DNA from: a virus
Taxonomy: Duplodnaviria > Caudoviricetes
DNA length: 64,000 nucleotides
IMG/VR virus record: IMGVR_UViG_3300009183_000045
Strand: one strand, 5' to 3'
Each line of letters opens with the position of its first letter. The stretch's first letter is position 1. A model generated the notes under the pieces. It ran no database searches. It was not told the DNA's origin and saw only the letters and a program-made list of their open reading frames with translations. This document shows positions 88 through 13,602 of the stretch, in pieces. Position numbers and translations under genes: made by a program.

Positions 88-584
88 TATTTGGAGTTGT
101 TAGTTTTTTCTTTATCCATAATAAAATTGAAGACTTTACCCATCATGCCTGCAATTTTACTGAATGTACCGTCTATTTTCAATAAAGTGGCTTTAATAGA
201 TTTAATATCTTCTAAAAGTTCTGCTGTATTGACATTTGCTACTGGAATAACCGGGTCACGGGTGGTGACAAAAGGAAGTGGAGTAAACGTGCCACTTCCG
301 CTGGGGGGACCCGTTATAACCGGAGAATTTTCAATTATATTAATGGACACATCAGGTGCCATTGACTGAACTAATGCCTCAGGAACATATCCTCTATTAG
401 CTGGATCAAAGGGATTAGCCACAGGTGCTGGTCCACCTTTCAAGGGAGCCAAGAAATTGTTGATATCAATTCGATTAGCTGCCTGAGATCTATCAGATGT
501 AATACTATCTACATGTTTAAGATGACCGCCGACCATGCCGGCTAGCATGGCGGCGTCTCTATCAAACTCTTTTTCAGATATCAT
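87..584 (-). CDS. Hypothetical protein, 165 aa, Pro-rich middle and coiled-coil C-terminus
   Basis: Tiles tightly between folE2 and the downstream gene; no family recognised. Confidence 0.7.
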   Translation of the reverse strand: MISEKEFDRDAAMLAGMVGGHLKHVDSITSDRSQAANRIDINNFLAPLKGGPAPVANPFDPANRGYVPEALVQSMAPDVSINIIENSPVITGPPSGSGTFTPLPFVTTRDPVIPVANVNTAELLEDIKSIKATLLKIDGTFSKIAGMMGKVFNFIMDKEKTNNSK

Positions 585-587
585 AAA

Positions 588-1436
588 TTACTTTAAATCC
601 CTGCCTGCGTTAATAACAGAAACCGCGATGCTAGAATGAATACTCTCATAATGATTGACAATTACGAGGTAATCCTTGATACGACCATCAAGATCTTTAT
701 CCAATTCAACTGCAACTTTACGAACCATGTCTTCAACAAACACCGGATTTTCATACATTAATTCAGTTTGATAGGCTTCATCAACTCTCTTAAGAGCATT
801 TACAATAGGAGCAGAAGAACTCTTTTCAACTGCAAGAATCAATTCTTCCAGCCAATAAATATTATCCTGATTAGCTGTGCCAACATTAGCCAATTCTACA
901 GTCACATCTGCATAAGACTGCTGATTATGTGCACCATAATCAGAAATTTCCTTAGAACAAGGACACAGGGAAGCGTAAAGAACATTTCCGTGGAGATAAA
1001 ATTTCTTTTCCCCATTAATCAGGCGACCTTCAAGTGATCCTTGATAATCCATATGAGAAACCACCTTGGAAACTGGTGCTTCTTTCTTCAAGAAATAATC
1101 AAATTTGATTTTAATGTAAGCATTTTCACTCTTCAGGCGAAGCTTACATTCATCCAGCAGGATATTCATCACTTCATCAATGCGATGAGTTTGATTGGCC
1201 AATACTTCTTCTACCAAAATACGGTAGCGACTCATATTTGTGCCTTTAACCTCTGGAGTGAGGTCTGTATACATGCTGATAATTGCTTTGGTGGGATTAA
1301 TGGTTCCATCTCGGCGAAGAATCTGCATAGGGACTACAATATTGCGAGATCCAACCTTTGGAATATATTTCTTAGGAAATCCGTCGACGGTGTTTTGGAT
1401 GTCTGGAATGTCGTTATTTGTTTTGATACGTGGCAT
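588..1436 (-). CDS. folE2: GTP cyclohydrolase I type B (FolE2/MptA family), about 282 aa
   Basis: Motifs IPDIQ, KGTNMSR, SLCPCSKEIS..GAHNQ, NPVFVEDMVR, HYESIH. Start moved to MPRIK (ATG 1436) because the longer ORF overlaps gp32. Confidence 0.92.
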   Translation of the reverse strand: MPRIKTNNDIPDIQNTVDGFPKKYIPKVGSRNIVVPMQILRRDGTINPTKAIISMYTDLTPEVKGTNMSRYRILVEEVLANQTHRIDEVMNILLDECKLRLKSENAYIKIKFDYFLKKEAPVSKVVSHMDYQGSLEGRLINGEKKFYLHGNVLYASLCPCSKEISDYGAHNQQSYADVTVELANVGTANQDNIYWLEELILAVEKSSSAPIVNALKRVDEAYQTELMYENPVFVEDMVRKVAVELDKDLDGRIKDYLVIVNHYESIHSSIAVSVINAGRDLK

Positions 1437-7731: not shown

Positions 7732-8538
7732 TTATATTACTAATATTCCATTTTTCAATGCAAATTCTTCTCTTTTTGGTTCTGTTGTTTCTGGAGATAA
7801 TATATCTTCTAGAGATCCTTCTGGACTAGGATGGGATAGTAAGGTGTTTTTGCGTGGTGTTTCTTTATTTTCTTTTTTAGTGGTAACAACCTCTAGAGCT
7901 TCTGCAATGGCCGGAAATAATTGGTTAAAACTTTCCTTGATAGAATTAGCTATTGTCCTGTGTTCAAGTTGAGTATCTACTTTGCACCTCAAATCAAAAT
8001 AATGGATCCAGGAACGAATGTTTCCGGACATATAAAGAGTTGTTTGTGTGCAAAGAGGTAAAACTTTACGAGCACTTTCTCTTGCTCCTCCTTTGGATAT
8101 TATATATTCATACAGATCAATGCCATCTGTTACATGATCTATTACTCTTTTAATATCTTCCTTGCTTAGTGGTAAAATATCTGTACTAGATTGACGATTT
8201 TTTTCTGCCTGAGCTCTAATATCGAAGGATTCAATTCCGGTTACCATACTGTATCGCTGGCTAAATTCTTGAAAAGCAAAAGACTTGTGTCTAATAATTT
8301 GAGCTGATATGTCCCTGCTAGTTTGAATTTCAACCGTCATTGAAGCTTGCTCAAAGATGGACCAATGGCCGTGTTCTATACAATATTTAATTAATTTTGA
8401 AGCAGATTCTAAGTTTAATTGATTAGATGGATTTGAAACTCTGGCACAATATACAATAAATTCTTCTGCGGTTAAAAATCTTGTATTATCTTCAGATCTT
8501 ATAAAGGGTTGAGTAACTGCTACTACTTTGGTGTACAT
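7732..8538 (-). CDS. thyX: Flavin-dependent thymidylate synthase
   Basis: ARVSNP, HWSIFE, RHKSFAFQEFSQRY, ARE.AR.VLP, TQLEHR. Confidence 0.95.
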   Translation of the reverse strand: MYTKVVAVTQPFIRSEDNTRFLTAEEFIVYCARVSNPSNQLNLESASKLIKYCIEHGHWSIFEQASMTVEIQTSRDISAQIIRHKSFAFQEFSQRYSMVTGIESFDIRAQAEKNRQSSTDILPLSKEDIKRVIDHVTDGIDLYEYIISKGGARESARKVLPLCTQTTLYMSGNIRSWIHYFDLRCKVDTQLEHRTIANSIKESFNQLFPAIAEALEVVTTKKENKETPRKNTLLSHPSPEGSLEDILSPETTEPKREEFALKNGILVI

Positions 8539-9332
8539 ATACCTTTAAATTTTAAAATGTTATGCTTAATAAGTTCTAAATTTGAAGAAGAAATTTCTGT
8601 ATCAAATAACTCTACCATTTTTTGAGGAGATTTGTCTAAAAGAGTTTCAATGTCATCATATGATTTACCAGAAATACCTGCCATAACGGGGTGGGATGTA
8701 TCTATACTATCAATAAAATTATATCTCATTGCTACATAATGACTAAATTCTGTAGGGACACCACATCCTAATAAATGATGTGGTTTATTTTTATTAATAA
8801 TACCCATTCCCACTAAGTGATTTATTAATTTAATGCGACCTACATTAAATCTATAAGCATTTGAATTGACATAATGTTCTTGTGTAGATTCTAGAAAATA
8901 ATCATAACCAAAACTAATTGCTATCTTATCAGCCTTTTCATTCATGAACCGATAACACTTTACAAGTTCTTGTAAAGTTTTGCCTTGCAAGACACCAATC
9001 TTTTTACCTGATAATTGAGACAAATCAAAATTATTTGTAAAAGATTCAAATGAACTAATATTGTGATCACAATCTTGCCATACGTCAGGCACTATATATT
9101 CATCTGGTTGAATTTCTAAAAGCCATTTGTAATATTTTTTTGAATCAAATGCTACACCTAATTCAAAAAGACTGCAATCCATAATAATTTGACGACCACT
9201 AATTTTAGCTTTCTTAAAAAATTCTAAATATGCAGGGTATTGTTCCAGTAGATGAACTAAACAATAATCATAATCTGTCATTGTTTGTATCTCGTCCATA
9301 ATTGACATTGGAGCTTCGTGTGCTATTCTCAT
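8523..9332 (-). CDS. TGT/DpdA-like TIM-barrel base-exchange transglycosylase (candidate DNA 7-deazaguanine insertase)
   Basis: Motifs in TGT order: IIMDCS (DSGG-like), PDV, GVLQG, HLLGCG, SIDTS; co-occurs with folE2/queD/queE/queC. Confidence 0.68.
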   Translation of the reverse strand: MRIAHEAPMSIMDEIQTMTDYDYCLVHLLEQYPAYLEFFKKAKISGRQIIMDCSLFELGVAFDSKKYYKWLLEIQPDEYIVPDVWQDCDHNISSFESFTNNFDLSQLSGKKIGVLQGKTLQELVKCYRFMNEKADKIAISFGYDYFLESTQEHYVNSNAYRFNVGRIKLINHLVGMGIINKNKPHHLLGCGVPTEFSHYVAMRYNFIDSIDTSHPVMAGISGKSYDDIETLLDKSPQKMVELFDTEISSSNLELIKHNILKFKGICTPK

Positions 9333-9353: not shown

Positions 9354-11693
9354 CTATCCGAATAAATCAAACAAATCTGTCTGAACTTCTCTTCCTGTTT
9401 GTGGAAGTCTCCATCCAATACAATCATAAAACCTCTCTAGTGGAGGAGATACTATCTTGTCAAACATGGTTTGATAATCGGGTTTGACGTGTTCATAAAG
9501 TTCTGTAGGATATCTTTCCATGAAAGCCATACTTTTGTAATTGAAAGCGTTCTTGCTTGTGTAGAAATATTTCAATTTCATGGCACTTCCTATAGATTCA
9601 TACTGATGATCCAATTTATAATGCTTGAGGAGTTTATTAAAGTGAATAGCACTCTTGGCTTGGAGAGTTGTTCCCTTTCCTATTTGTCCAAAAGCGTCTA
9701 TTTTGGCTTCATATTTTTCATAATCAGAAATTTTGGTTCTAATTGAAATGTTTTCCACCGGCATACTACAAAAGTCTTCATGAGCTTTCTTAAATATGGT
9801 GTCTGCTTTCTTTTTATCTTGAGCCATCATTGCAGATTCAATCACACTTTTGATTAATTCTTTAACTTCCTTCGAGATTGTAGAGCGAGCTATCTCAACT
9901 CCTACATATTTGAAAGGTTTCTTCGGAATCTTGCCTTCTTTGTCTATAATGTGTAGTATATAGCGCTTCTTAGCATCAAATAAAGCTACATCACAAATTG
10001 TTTCTTGTTTAAAAACAAACCGTGGATCACTTACTTTCAGTTCTTTTCGAGCCCATATCTTGATTTGTTCATTGAGATATACGTCAATTTCCCCGATTAC
10101 CTTCCTGGCTCCTTCTGTAATCTTGCCGTTTTCCTGCAGATTGATGTTTAGGGTATTGAGGATGGGTTCGATGGAAAAGTAAGCAGAATCAGTATCTCCG
10201 TAGCGATACAGGTCGCCTTTCTTCCCGGTAAACCCTTGCTGCCGGGCATATTCTAAAACAATTTCTGGAGCTTGCTTGGCCACTGTTTGGCCTGTTAGAG
10301 TAATGCTAGCGGAATGATCAATGTCAAAAAGCGGAGAATATTTCTGTGCAAATACACCATAAATGGAGTTTAGAATCAACTTAAACACATTTTGTTGTGT
10401 GTCAAGGTTAAGAATCTCGGCTTCAAGCCGTAATTTTTCCTCTTTATCTGTTAATGTCTCTGCAATATCTGTTAATCTTGAGGCTTCTCTCTGAGTTTGC
10501 ACTCGTTCATCATACAATCTATCGATTAAAGCAGGCACAACACCACGAAATTTCTGTGTATACAATACATTATACTTAGAAATTGACAATTCTTCTTTCT
10601 GTACCAGGCGATTAAACTTTTCTTCAGAGAGAATTACTGTTTTTTCATTGGAAAGACGAATTGTATACTCATTATTTTCTATTTCGACTATTTTTCCTAT
10701 CTTTGTCTCCGGAGAAATGTTCAAAGTGATGATTGTATTTGGATATAGACTGTTTGCATCATAGCTTACCACAGATTTACACAGACCTCTCTCGGGTTCG
10801 TGTACATATCCACCTACATATTCATCTCTGATGCCGTCATTCTTGAATGTAGGGATGCGATATCCCTGTAAAAGAGCTTGATGAGCAACTGCTCCGGTGA
10901 TCATAGAGACCTTTCCGAGAGATTGTTCGAAGGGAATGAAACCTTTATAGGACAAAGCTCTAATCAATTTGAGAAATTTAAGCTTCTCTTCCATCTTTGC
11001 TAGCAGTCTTACATCTTGTATGTTGTAATCTACAAATAAATCCCAATCAGATTCTGAGAGAGCTGCTAGATTGGTGCCACCAACATCTGTTTTGCCTTCA
11101 TTCAATTCATATTCTGAAATATAATTCAAAGAATAAGACTCTCTGTCGCCGCGGGAGAAGGTTTTATACACCTCCATGTAGTCAATATTACTCACTCCAC
11201 GAATATACCACCTATCAATCATCTTACCCATCTTGTTCATTGCTACATTCTCTCGATAGTAGATAGCCCTTACCGGAGATAGACGAGAAGTCTCCTCTTG
11301 GCCCAAGAGTTTATTAATGCGATTCATTACATAAGGAACGTCAAATCCCTCAGAGTTCCAACCAACCATCATATCTGGAGGATCTTTCTCCCAGAAACTC
11401 AAAAAAGCATTTAATAATTCTGTTTCTTTTTTACAATATGTGTAAACAACATTATCTTCTTTAGGTTTATAGGGTTTCAATCCCCAAGAATAAAATTTTT
11501 GACTGATGGAATCAAAAATTGTAATTAAATTGATTGGGTCATTGGCTATTTTAGGCTCCGGAAATTCTCCTTGTTGACTATAACAAGAATTAAAGTATGA
11601 AGTCCAACACTGTTTATCTTCATCCCATACTTCATAATCTTCAAACATGTTGCTATTACGAAATTCTCCTAATTTTATTGTGGATTCAGCCAT
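9354..11693 (-). CDS. gp43 family B DNA polymerase, C-terminal part (rest of exonuclease plus polymerase domain), 779 aa
   Basis: ExoII GWNSEGFDVPY, ExoIII YNIQD, motif A SYDANSLYP, motif B KLILNSIYG, motif C YGDTDS, KKRY. Confidence 0.95.
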   Translation of the reverse strand: MAESTIKLGEFRNSNMFEDYEVWDEDKQCWTSYFNSCYSQQGEFPEPKIANDPINLITIFDSISQKFYSWGLKPYKPKEDNVVYTYCKKETELLNAFLSFWEKDPPDMMVGWNSEGFDVPYVMNRINKLLGQEETSRLSPVRAIYYRENVAMNKMGKMIDRWYIRGVSNIDYMEVYKTFSRGDRESYSLNYISEYELNEGKTDVGGTNLAALSESDWDLFVDYNIQDVRLLAKMEEKLKFLKLIRALSYKGFIPFEQSLGKVSMITGAVAHQALLQGYRIPTFKNDGIRDEYVGGYVHEPERGLCKSVVSYDANSLYPNTIITLNISPETKIGKIVEIENNEYTIRLSNEKTVILSEEKFNRLVQKEELSISKYNVLYTQKFRGVVPALIDRLYDERVQTQREASRLTDIAETLTDKEEKLRLEAEILNLDTQQNVFKLILNSIYGVFAQKYSPLFDIDHSASITLTGQTVAKQAPEIVLEYARQQGFTGKKGDLYRYGDTDSAYFSIEPILNTLNINLQENGKITEGARKVIGEIDVYLNEQIKIWARKELKVSDPRFVFKQETICDVALFDAKKRYILHIIDKEGKIPKKPFKYVGVEIARSTISKEVKELIKSVIESAMMAQDKKKADTIFKKAHEDFCSMPVENISIRTKISDYEKYEAKIDAFGQIGKGTTLQAKSAIHFNKLLKHYKLDHQYESIGSAMKLKYFYTSKNAFNYKSMAFMERYPTELYEHVKPDYQTMFDKIVSPPLERFYDCIGWRLPQTGREVQTDLFDLFG

Positions 11694-12487
11694 ATATTGC
11701 GCAGATTTGTTAAATTTTTATGTTTACAAGGAGATATATTCTCTATCAAATAAGATATAAATTCCTCTTCAGACATATTAGCGTATCTCTTACCCGAAAT
11801 CTCCCTTTGATTGGTTTTTTTACCCTTTTTGGCTTCTGATATCTTTCGTCCTCTTTCAATGTGGTTAACATTTTGGTTGTGCAAAGATTTTTTTAATCTA
11901 TTTTTTTTATCCTCAGCTGATAATTGAGATATATTTAATTTAGCCTTGCTGGATAGTTGCTGCCTCACCTCTAATGTATATCCTGCAGAGACTACCTTGG
12001 ACCTATCCCAGTGGCCGTAAATATATTTATTTTTTTTAATATTCACCCTATTGCCACATCCACATAAACAAATTGGTAAATTTTCTAATTTAATCTGATT
12101 TAAAATTAAATTTCTTTTTTGGTGGGATTCTGAGACCTTAAGGCGTGTCTCTGGATTTTTCATTGGATGATTGATTGAATATTCTTTCCTGGCAATTTCA
12201 AATTGTCTAGAAGTAGTTTTTCTATTTTTAGAATTATGAAAACACATTCGATTAAAAGCAGATGATAATTTAGTCTTTATCTGAATATTGTCTTTTTTAT
12301 ACATTTTACACAAAAGCCAATGAGCTATAAAATGTTCCCTGGCGGTGAGTAAACTAATATTGGAAGTTTCATTAGAACCCCCTAAACATTTAGGAATTAT
12401 ATGATGTCTTTCATAATATTGAAGAGTTAATTTAATTCTAGTTGTTCCTCTAGTACAGATTTTGAGATATATAGACTTATAATTCAC
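11675..12487 (-). mobile_element. HNH homing endonuclease gene (GTG start) inserted between the two gp43 pieces
   Basis: ERHHIIPKCLGGSN...N...LTAREHFIAH HNH motif, CLCGC and basic C-terminal DNA-binding region. Confidence 0.92.
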
Positions 12488-12490
12488 ATA

Positions 12491-12500
12491 TATAATTATA
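12491..12500 (-). promoter_or_regulatory. Palindromic TATAATTATA, candidate late promoter for the HNH gene
   Basis: Variant of T4 late TATAAATA; the TAATTA core ends 5 nt before the GTG. Confidence 0.45.
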
Positions 12501-12516
12501 AGTCTCTAAGTCCCGG

Positions 12517-12915
12517 TTAAGATTTTTTTCTTATTTTAATTTTATGATCGTCCTTGTATCTCATACCGTACGTTTCAATGTCCCAAAAGTAAATCTTTAA
12601 AGGATTTGCCAGTGCTTCTGGCTTATGGATATCATCTTTGAATGAAGACAACAAAAATTCTTGTTCACAACTGAGATTGTGAAATATTCTTTTAATGGCC
12701 GTCTCGTTTACAAATTTATTACGTTCAAATTGATTTTTGAACTTAACTTTTTTTAGAGGTGTATTAAAAATAGAGACCGCATCTGTGCCGTATGCAGATT
12801 CTACGAACAGATGCGGTTCATAACTGGATTCTAATTTGATTCGTTTACCATTTTCATTCCACGTCCACAGATGGACACACTGTTTTGCGGAATCATAAAA
12901 GACATTTCGATACAT
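12517..12915 (-). CDS. gp43 DNA polymerase, N-terminal part (N-domain plus ExoI motif), 132 aa
   Basis: MYRNV...W..NG.R....YEP.LF gp43-type N-terminus and ExoI YFWDIETY, then ends with KIRKKS-stop. Confidence 0.9.
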   Translation of the reverse strand: MYRNVFYDSAKQCVHLWTWNENGKRIKLESSYEPHLFVESAYGTDAVSIFNTPLKKVKFKNQFERNKFVNETAIKRIFHNLSCEQEFLLSSFKDDIHKPEALANPLKIYFWDIETYGMRYKDDHKIKIRKKS

Positions 12916-12951
12916 CTCAATATTTTCATATCAATGTGATGGAATGTCACT

Positions 12952-13602
12952 CTATTTTACTTTCCATTTAACATCAAACTCGCTCCAATCTTCTGGAACA
13001 TCTTCAAATTTATTTTCTGTTAAAACTCCCCATCCAGATGAGCATTTTTTATAATTATCATCCAAGAAGACTTCAAAATTACTTAATTTGTTTTGAAATG
13101 TTTTAGATTTATTTGTGTAGATATTAGGTCTTCCGTCTTTTTCTACTTCACATTGTATTGTTTCTATAGATTTGTTATCTATTAGCAATTTTAAAGTGGT
13201 TAAAACTAAAAAATCACACCCCTGTAAATCACTTATATAAGTTTTAACACTTTTAATATCATTTTCTTCTAAAAAATTTATTAAATTTACAGTAGGCACC
13301 ACAATTTTTTCTTGGGTTTTAATTAAATGATATAAATTACTTTCTTTATTAGGTTCTAACAATGAACTAGAATCACCGTTGTTGCTTGATATGTAGAAAT
13401 ACATACTTTCATTATGTCTATCACACACAGCAGCATTAATTATTTTTACATGGGGGTGGGAGTTAAATCTTTGAAATAAAATTCTACAAAAATTTGGATT
13501 GGCTTCAAATATAAAAACTTTTTCATAATCATCAATCAAACCAGAAACACCATTTCCGTGATGGCCTCCTACATAAATTAAAACATTTTCGAATTTTTTC
13601 AT
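12952..13602 (-). CDS. FkbM-family SAM methyltransferase
   Basis: YVGGHHG, FEANP, NAAV, SSSL, SDLQGCD (D.EG.E-like). Confidence 0.8.
   Translation of the reverse strand: MKKFENVLIYVGGHHGNGVSGLIDDYEKVFIFEANPNFCRILFQRFNSHPHVKIINAAVCDRHNESMYFYISSNNGDSSSLLEPNKESNLYHLIKTQEKIVVPTVNLINFLEENDIKSVKTYISDLQGCDFLVLTTLKLLIDNKSIETIQCEVEKDGRPNIYTNKSKTFQNKLSNFEVFLDDNYKKCSSGWGVLTENKFEDVPEDWSEFDVKWKVK

Follow-up and report, generated by a model that had tools for sequence, protein, structure and literature searches.

Organization of the divided polymerase locus

The DNA analysed here is a stretch of 64,000 nucleotides (IMG/VR virus record IMGVR_UViG_3300009183_000045, referred to below as the window) from an uncultured, AT-rich (34% GC), freshwater, T4-like phage. 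Between positions 9354 and 12915 the minus strand of the window carries three consecutive open reading frames (ORFs), each in a different frame, which together appear to represent a DNA polymerase gene of the T4 gp43 type that is interrupted by the gene for a free-standing homing endonuclease. The first of these, which we call the N-piece (12517..12915), encodes 132 amino acids (aa) comprising the PolB N-terminal domain, the first strand of the exonuclease domain with the ExoI motif DIETY (residues 112–116; 12568..12582) and a basic tail of 16 aa, GMRYKDDHKIKIRKKS (12520..12567), before a TAA stop codon (12519-12517). A spacer of 29 nt (12516-12488) separates the N-piece from a Mob-type HNH gene (11675..12487) that begins with GTG and encodes 270 aa. 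The spacer and codons 2–5 of the HNH gene form a predicted RNA hairpin (12470..12508), identified through covariation, with the HNH start codon at the edge of its loop.

The second polymerase ORF, the C-piece (9354..11693), encodes 779 aa and shares its first 19 nt with the end of the HNH gene, where its ATG overlaps the conserved NLRNIW terminus of the endonuclease in such a way that the start codon is embedded in the Trp codon of that motif. The C-piece opens with an acidic head of 39 aa (11577..11693) bearing the signature YEVWDE..K.W..Y..SCY, and then continues through the remaining exonuclease domain, the palm, the fingers and the thumb. The tail and the head, neither of which is found in intact alleles, are both borne by the inserted element, and the whole cassette of tail, stop codon, hairpin spacer, HNH gene and head amounts to approximately 991 bp (11577..12567). 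A preliminary description of this DNA, made from the letters and an ORF list, had reported the 132-aa N-piece with its DIETY motif, the TAA at 12517, the 29-nt spacer and the 19-nt overlap, and all of these coordinates are exact.

The complete motif set of a family B (T4 gp43-type) polymerase is present but is shared out over the two ORFs. ExoI (pattern DxE) lies in the N-piece, while ExoII (NxxxFD; 11319-11363), ExoIII (YxxxD; 11001-11027) and the polymerase motifs A (DxxSLYPS; 10734-10760), B (KxxxNSxYG; 10356-10382) and C (YGDTDS; 10185-10202) lie in the C-piece. In a PHROG search the N-piece matches positions 8–128 of the DNA-polymerase profile phrog_262 (E 3.6e-11), and it aligns with residues 1–116 of intact 857-aa relatives. 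The C-piece matches the Pfam families DNA_pol_B_exo1 (PF03104, 1.5e-17) and DNA_pol_B (PF00136, 3.3e-23). The closest named relatives are the gp43 proteins of cyanophages and pelagiphages, at approximately 30% identity; no near-DNA match to the locus was found in the phage collection, and the N-piece alone gave no tblastn match there. In a collection of 5.8 billion proteins the nearest relatives are mostly 857-aa polymerases that align to C-piece residues 40–779, together with a minority of proteins of 779–782 aa that align along the entire C-piece.

Judged by its sequence, the ORF between the two pieces is a Mob-type homing endonuclease. It matches the homing-endonuclease profile phrog_655 (E 2.2e-39), shares 31–35% identity with annotated HNH homing endonucleases of T4-like phages and is 38% identical to MobE of Aeromonas phage Aeh1 over the catalytic N-terminus (E 6e-15), with weak matches, under the gathering score, to the Pfam families HNH and HNH_5. 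Residues H28, H29, N43, H52 and H56 show little or no variation among 30 full-length homologues. The start codon is GTG in the window and ATG in six relatives, and public gene calls truncate the product of the window, since the corresponding collection entry (P0140) is a protein of 209 aa that starts from a later ATG.

Recurrence of the layout and boundaries of the insert

The same three-ORF layout is found in six independent lake-metagenome assemblies (L002/L003, L004, L005, L006, L007 and L009) whose polymerases are 55–87% identical to that of the window, with N-pieces of 132–135 aa, HNH genes of 266–270 aa and a C-piece overlap of 16–19 nt. It is also found in four IMG/VR contigs (L011, L012, L013 and L018) that have far more divergent polymerases, and N-pieces of 132–135 aa form 14 clusters with identity down to 48%. 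A contig of 21,433 nt from a different study covers positions 11307-12916 without gaps at approximately 98% identity, both junctions included, and both junctions are bridged by contigs that are 100% identical. Misassembly, which the preliminary description had named as a way in which the layout could prove false, is excluded because the layout recurs independently and because the contig from the other study is colinear through both junctions. The architecture occurs in at least 10 independent contigs with polymerases that range from 87% identical to very divergent, and must therefore be both real and old.

Comparison with intact alleles defines the boundaries of the insert. Where the intact allele L001 (87% identical) reads DIETY-SP-GEFPEP, the split alleles read DIET(Y/D) followed by a tail of 15–18 aa that always ends in IKIRKK(x) and a stop codon, and their C-pieces carry a head of 38–39 aa before the polymerase resumes at (G/S)FPEP. 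The closest comparison is between a split allele (L007) and an intact one (L010) that share approximately 96% DNA identity over 6 kb and differ here by one clean indel of 992 bp. In terms of protein structure, the cassette is located in the hairpin loop immediately past the ExoI strand of the T4-type PolB.

Two further observations concern the range of split alleles. In one relative (P0135) the polymerase is broken twice, such that an N-piece of 134 aa and an HNH gene of 268 aa are followed by a C-part of only 435 aa, after which come a gene of 300 aa in the opposite orientation and additional fragments. Separately, a search of IMG/VR with the exonuclease region of another relative, P0280, returned 24 viral contigs (L106-L129); most of the matches start near the head region of the query (residues 90–118) and three start at residue 176, and the preponderance of starts at the head region suggests that IMG/VR holds many more split alleles.

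Two cistrons under selection as protein

To compare the evolution of the different parts of the locus we used the ratio of nonsynonymous to synonymous differences (pN/pS, NG86), which is 0.26 for the body of the N-piece, 0.45 for the tail, 0.38 for the head, 0.30 for the body of the C-piece and 0.41 for the HNH gene. The value for the head was computed on the part that does not overlap the HNH gene, where pS is 0.70. Synonymous change in both tail and head is near-saturated, and the codons for YEVWD vary at third positions only. By these codon comparisons both polymerase pieces, tail and head included, are under purifying selection as protein, and so is the HNH gene.

The start codon of the C-piece is kept as ATG or GTG among the relatives, and in 6 of 7 of them in-frame stop codons lie just upstream. 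A Shine-Dalgarno-like motif within 22 nt of the start is present in only 5 of the 55 long ORFs of the window, whose starts occupy A/T-rich contexts, and the atatATG context of the C-piece, to which the preliminary description had drawn attention, is typical of them. Its suggestion that the C-piece could be translated independently gains from the retained start codon and the upstream stops. The contigs of one metatranscriptome did not match the locus, which carries no weight for or against its expression. On the sequence evidence the two polymerase pieces are separate cistrons, and a fragmented DNA polymerase gene that contains neither an intron nor an intein is in our judgement very probably what this locus represents.

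An alternative would be a group I or other self-splicing intron that carries the HNH gene, with a mature mRNA encoding a continuous polymerase. The size of the insert, approximately 990 nt with an ORF of approximately 810 nt, is like that of the T4 td or sunY introns, and group I introns that carry HNH genes are frequently found in the polymerase genes of phages. Rfam, however, identifies no intron family at E up to 10 in positions 11300-13000 and none at E up to 0.5 in nine related loci, in agreement with the earlier impression that the insert lacks an intron core. Only 23–38 nt of the insert lies outside the ORFs, and the 48 nt and 117 nt of tail and head that a ribozyme core would need evolve as codons (pN/pS 0.45 and 0.38). 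Tail and head would be spliced out together with an intron, yet they are kept as peptides in polymerases that are only ~27–30% identical, and a kept C-piece start codon with stops upstream suits a separate cistron. Taken together, these properties make an intron very improbable. Frameshifting or slippage on the A-run at the end of the tail was considered as another route to a continuous product and rejected, since the other two frames meet stops before the HNH start.

It could also be proposed that the tail and the head each represent one half of a split intein that is very small or degenerate, and that the two pieces are ligated by protein trans-splicing. An N-extein, a homing endonuclease gene and a C-extein are laid out in this order in the fractured genes of Dassa et al. 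2009 (PMC2677866). The head is about as long as a typical C-intein, and a Ser/Cys pair (SCY) comes after it. Tail and head together, however, provide only approximately 55 aa, and a Hint fold needs roughly 125 aa or more. The residues expected for splicing are also not conserved: the first tail position is G, S, I or T across the relatives, without a conserved nucleophile, the position ahead of SCY is occupied by N, S, V, N, D, Q or D, which leaves no conserved terminal Asn, and the TxxH block is absent. No Pfam or NCBIfam Hint or intein profile matches the head, or the contiguous form of tail and head that is described below, at E up to 10, and an AlphaFold2 model contains a short helix and one β-hairpin rather than a Hint horseshoe, with the tail at low confidence. 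A splicing intein is thus scarcely credible here, and while tail and head could in principle be a Hint-domain relic, the profile and model tests do not support such an origin.

Genuine intein sequence may be present elsewhere in the family. The last ~110 residues of one split C-piece of 703 aa (P0275) resemble a genuine intein N-terminus (CHPDTKIYLSDG... and ...TEDHKIL...), and a real split intein may break this polymerase a second time farther downstream.

Predicted reassembly of the polymerase

To examine how two such pieces might function we used a complex model of the N-piece with C-piece residues 1–430. The model scored 0.83, compared with 0.00 for the best of three controls; the mark set for this score is reached by 51 of 78 solved complexes and by 2 of 108 mismatched pairs. 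Runs share at least 89% of contacts, and the partner pLDDT (predicted local distance difference test) is at least 86. In the model the ExoI strand (N-piece residues 105–114) pairs with C-piece residues 56–63 and 106–110 and re-forms the exonuclease sheet, while tail residues 117–131 contact head residues 1–12, 16, 18–23 and 30. Because PolB structures are solved, the part of the prediction that concerns the exonuclease sheet may reflect memory of intact polymerases; the predicted contact between tail and head is without solved structural precedent. The model supports binding of the N-piece to the C-piece without demonstrating it.

We propose that the N-piece and C-piece would be translated independently from the polymerase mRNA and would assemble non-covalently. 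Such assembly would build the proofreading site from ExoI on one chain and ExoII and ExoIII on the other, an arrangement that the preliminary description had put forward and that the predicted reassembly (0.83 against 0.00) favours.

A different reading is that the split gene is a disabled polymerase, that is a pseudogene, and that another polymerase replicates the genome. The break between ExoI and ExoII falls inside an active site, and the 64-kb window is part of a genome of approximately 215 kb, in the remainder of which a second polymerase could lie. Against this, purifying selection acts on all of the pieces to the degree seen in intact relatives, every catalytic motif is intact, the same split is maintained across many lineages of very divergent polymerases, and the pieces are predicted to reassemble. 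A pseudogene is on this evidence highly unlikely.

A conserved tail and head

The tail and head are conserved features of the split polymerases. The IKIRKK ending of the tail is retained in the 14 split N-piece clusters, down to 48% identity, and across the relatives the isoelectric point (pI) is 8.4–10.2 for the tail and 4.1–5.0 for the head, with values of 10.1 and 4.1 in the window. We built a profile from seven heads and compared it with 1.84 billion representative proteins. The matches fall into 28 clusters, all of them PolB, so that among these matches the head occurs in no other host gene, and a tblastn search of cultured phages with the head gave chance matches only. The head is N-terminal in 26 of the 28 clusters and internal in 2. 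In the latter, represented by P0280 (1003 aa) and P0276 (891 aa), the internal head follows directly after a tail-like ...IKI(K/R)K without an endonuclease. A contiguous form of the module therefore exists, as these unsplit polymerases carry tail and head in frame without an HNH gene. AlphaFold2 predicts an exonuclease fold like that of RB69 gp43 for the exonuclease region of P0280 (Foldseek E 1e-16), in which the head is a short helix and a β-hairpin of moderate confidence.

By analogy with the mobE-split NrdA of phage Aeh1, the basic tail and the acidic head would pack together as a clasp that compensates for the break. Against such a role, the tail in the contiguous form is poorly modelled by AlphaFold2 (pLDDT below 50), and the clasp accordingly rests on one ESMFold-type complex model and on charge. 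Separate translation and assembly of the pieces are themselves something that we infer from sequence and modelling, as is the function of the clasp.

It is tempting to go further and to view the tail and head, approximately 55 aa in total, as a self-contained non-splicing module that is mobile with the HNH gene, is kept in the mature enzyme where it holds the halves together, and survives in some polymerases as a contiguous insertion free of the endonuclease. We consider this a tentative possibility. The module might instead be an older in-frame decoration of the exonuclease loop which the HNH gene entered later, in which case the tails would be the two parts of a split host domain rather than a product of the endonuclease insertion. 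Contiguous forms (P0280 and P0276) do exist, the module has its own conserved fold elements, and the head profile matches PolB and no other host genes, all of which would suit an older decoration. The contiguous forms are however rare (2 of 28 clusters), and the near-isogenic pair gains or loses the module and the HNH gene together. In addition, P0280 has as its nearest aligned relative a split polymerase, P0281 (46% identity), and the contiguous forms may accordingly be derivatives that have lost the HNH gene. An older decoration is in our view rather unlikely.

A hairpin over the endonuclease start

The hairpin that covers the spacer and the start of the HNH gene consists of 15 pairs. Over eight loci 85.8% of the cells are paired, compared with 27–53% in slid controls, five pairs show compensatory changes, and the covariation score was reached by none of 500 shuffles. 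The 5′ arm contains a motif, TATAA(A/T/G)T, that resembles a late promoter. A conserved stem-loop that occludes the start codon is common to this locus and to endonuclease genes of the I-TevI and Aeh1 mobE type; for I-TevI, I-TevII, I-TevIII, segB and Aeh1 mobE, a late promoter inside the hairpin gives rise to a transcript that is unable to fold (PMC2988022). By the same logic the hairpin would hide the HNH start codon on read-through polymerase transcripts, which would leave, as the sole source of the nuclease, a shorter and probably late transcript with its 5′ end within the hairpin.

Two points count against the promoter. Copies of TATAAATA are fewer in the window than expected by chance, and the TATAAATA-like motif may be kept only through its obligatory pairing with the N-Y codons of the HNH gene. 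Because this pairing could explain the conservation and because TATAAATA is not enriched in the window, we treat the promoter as putative.

Distribution and mobility of the cassette

In alignments of near-identical polymerase genes the cassette is present or absent as a unit, and its distribution is patchy. In a polymerase tree of 120 sequences, nine of which are split alleles, the starred branches force no fewer than 7 events of gain or loss, and in several cases the sister of a split allele is an intact allele of near-identical sequence. The cassette is a widespread polymorphism in uncultured freshwater T4-like phages.

We propose that during co-infection the HNH enzyme would cut alleles that lack the cassette, close to the conserved sequence that encodes ExoI and FPxP, and that repair would then copy in the whole cassette, a process of intronless homing. 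The pattern possibly reflects recurrent homing among close relatives or recurrent loss by recombination with intact alleles, and either of these is part of the normal life cycle of a homing endonuclease gene. The HNH data reject a grouping of the window with L002 and L004 (approximately unbiased test, p-AU 5e-6). Homing as the cause of the patchiness is weakened by two considerations: repeated loss from an old, vertically inherited insertion could explain it as well as repeated homing, and the polymerase data do not reject the HNH topology (p 0.28), so that incongruence between host gene and element is not shown. The identity matrices of polymerase and HNH do not show horizontal transfer either, as differences in rate can account for them.

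Neighbouring genes

Directly upstream of the N-piece lies a gene for an FkbM-type methyltransferase of 216 aa (12952-13602, minus strand; PF05050, E 4e-7). It is an extra insertion in the phage of the window, because in L001 and L002 the polymerase directly adjoins an upstream gene of 438 aa. Directly downstream of the polymerase, an ORF of 269 aa (8523-9332, minus strand) has no Pfam match at E up to 0.01. There are no tRNA genes within the 64-kb window. The related assembly L004 carries a further probable homing endonuclease, a 298-aa gene with a NUMOD3 domain (256-1152, minus strand), which is found two genes upstream of its split polymerase and is encoded on the other strand.

Comparison with known systems

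Of the known systems, the nearest to this locus is the mobE-split nrdA of Aeromonas phage Aeh1 (nrdA-a/mobE/nrdA-b; Friedrich et al. 2007; Gibb and Edgell 2007, 2009; Crona et al. 2011, PMC3045599). The preliminary description had drawn this analogy, and it is an apt one that extends to the hairpin spacer, the Mob-type HNH gene and the overlap of 14–19 nt with the downstream piece. In both cases the interrupted gene is essential and related to replication, and a Mob-type HNH gene divides it at an active-site motif. An upstream piece and a short spacer precede the HNH gene, inside the 3′ end of which the downstream piece starts. The spacer and the overlap with nrdA-B measure 46 nt and 14 nt in Aeh1, compared with 29 nt and 19 nt here, and both loci have a hairpin over the endonuclease start (PMC2988022). 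Both also have a basic C-terminal tail and an acidic N-terminal tail, with pI values of 10.4 and 3.8 in Aeh1 and of 10.1 and 4.1 here. The basic C-tail and acidic N-tail of Aeh1 NrdA, both unique, arose with the insertion, are retained and are essential, and it was suggested that element-derived tails might be a general mechanism, of which there was then one example (Crona et al. 2011, PMC3045599).

The two systems differ in several respects. The host gene is a ribonucleotide reductase in Aeh1 and a polymerase here; the tails are proven to be essential there, whereas the clasp here is a prediction from modelling; and the present cassette is widespread and polymorphic in a large group of uncultured phages, with a contiguous form of tail and head in existence. 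Homology to the Aeh1 NrdA tails was considered and rejected, the candidate signals, none of them significant, being a shared YEV(W/Y) look, a head hidden Markov model that ranked the Aeh1 NrdA-B ORF 5th of 3811 at E 4.2, and a short BLASTP match at E ~1. The tails are not detectably homologous to those of Aeh1, and the polymerase cassette therefore seems to operate in the manner of the Aeh1 one but not to be copied from it.

A polymerase of this family is also known in two cistrons that form a split enzyme, in the bicistronic gp43 (43A/43B) of the T4-related Aeromonas phages 44RR, 31, 25 and 65 and Acinetobacter phage 133 (Petrov et al. 2006, 2010; summarized in PMC2988022 and PMC3061061). In phage 25 a free-standing homing endonuclease gene, seg43(25), is located between 43A and 43B. 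The break in 43A/43B is in the fingertip of the fingers domain (PMC3061061, citing Petrov 2006, 2010), so that the known gp43 splits do lie elsewhere, as the preliminary description had maintained; here the break is between ExoI and ExoII. The endonuclease there is of the GIY-YIG (seg-like) type rather than HNH, and no conserved tail and head module is reported for those splits. In the literature we found no description of a gp43 break between ExoI and ExoII.

Fractured genes (Dassa et al. 2009, PMC2677866) are likewise replication genes of phages from aquatic metagenomes that consist of an N-part, an endonuclease gene and a C-part, with a hairpin upstream of the endonuclease, and intein-less cases are recorded among them. 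The present locus differs from the intein-bearing type in having no Hint domain and no splicing residues and in adding only 55 aa, and the rejoining would be non-covalent. In the polymerase genes of SPO1/SP82, the T7-like phage phiI and phage 25 (intron 25.g43B), the interruption is a group I intron that carries an HNH or GIY-YIG gene (cited in PMC2993671 and PMC10580990). These cases resemble the present one in the interruption of a polymerase gene, at a conserved motif, by the gene for a homing endonuclease; the difference is that no ribozyme core is found here and that the flanking insert appears from its codon evolution to be translated and selected as protein. A Mob-type HNH gene also lies between the halves of a split topoisomerase large subunit in the T4 gene 60/mobA/gene 39 arrangement, where the halves of this essential subunit work as separate polypeptides and the host gene is a different one (PMC2988022).

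Fragmentation of genes by endonucleases and element-derived interaction tails are thus already known (the latter from Crona et al. 2011, PMC3045599). What is new is the site of the break in the enzyme and the conserved, element-borne tail and head module, which is also found unsplit.

Implications

One practical consequence concerns annotation, since the 132-aa "hypothetical protein" found upstream of such endonuclease genes in lake metagenomes is the first part of a DNA polymerase. The locus also provides a second, independent case of tails after Aeh1, in a different enzyme, and the dozens of natural variants, together with matched intact alleles and rare contiguous alleles, make up a comparative series on the function of such tails. 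If the predicted reassembly holds, two polypeptides can apparently make up a 3′–5′ proofreading site between them, ExoI being carried by a chain of 15 kDa, and this bears on the engineering of split polymerases. If the view of tail and head as a mobile, non-splicing module is true, the module would be the protein-level counterpart of an intein, one that neutralises its own damage by clasping the broken halves together and that is specialised for the ExoI loop of T4-type polymerases.

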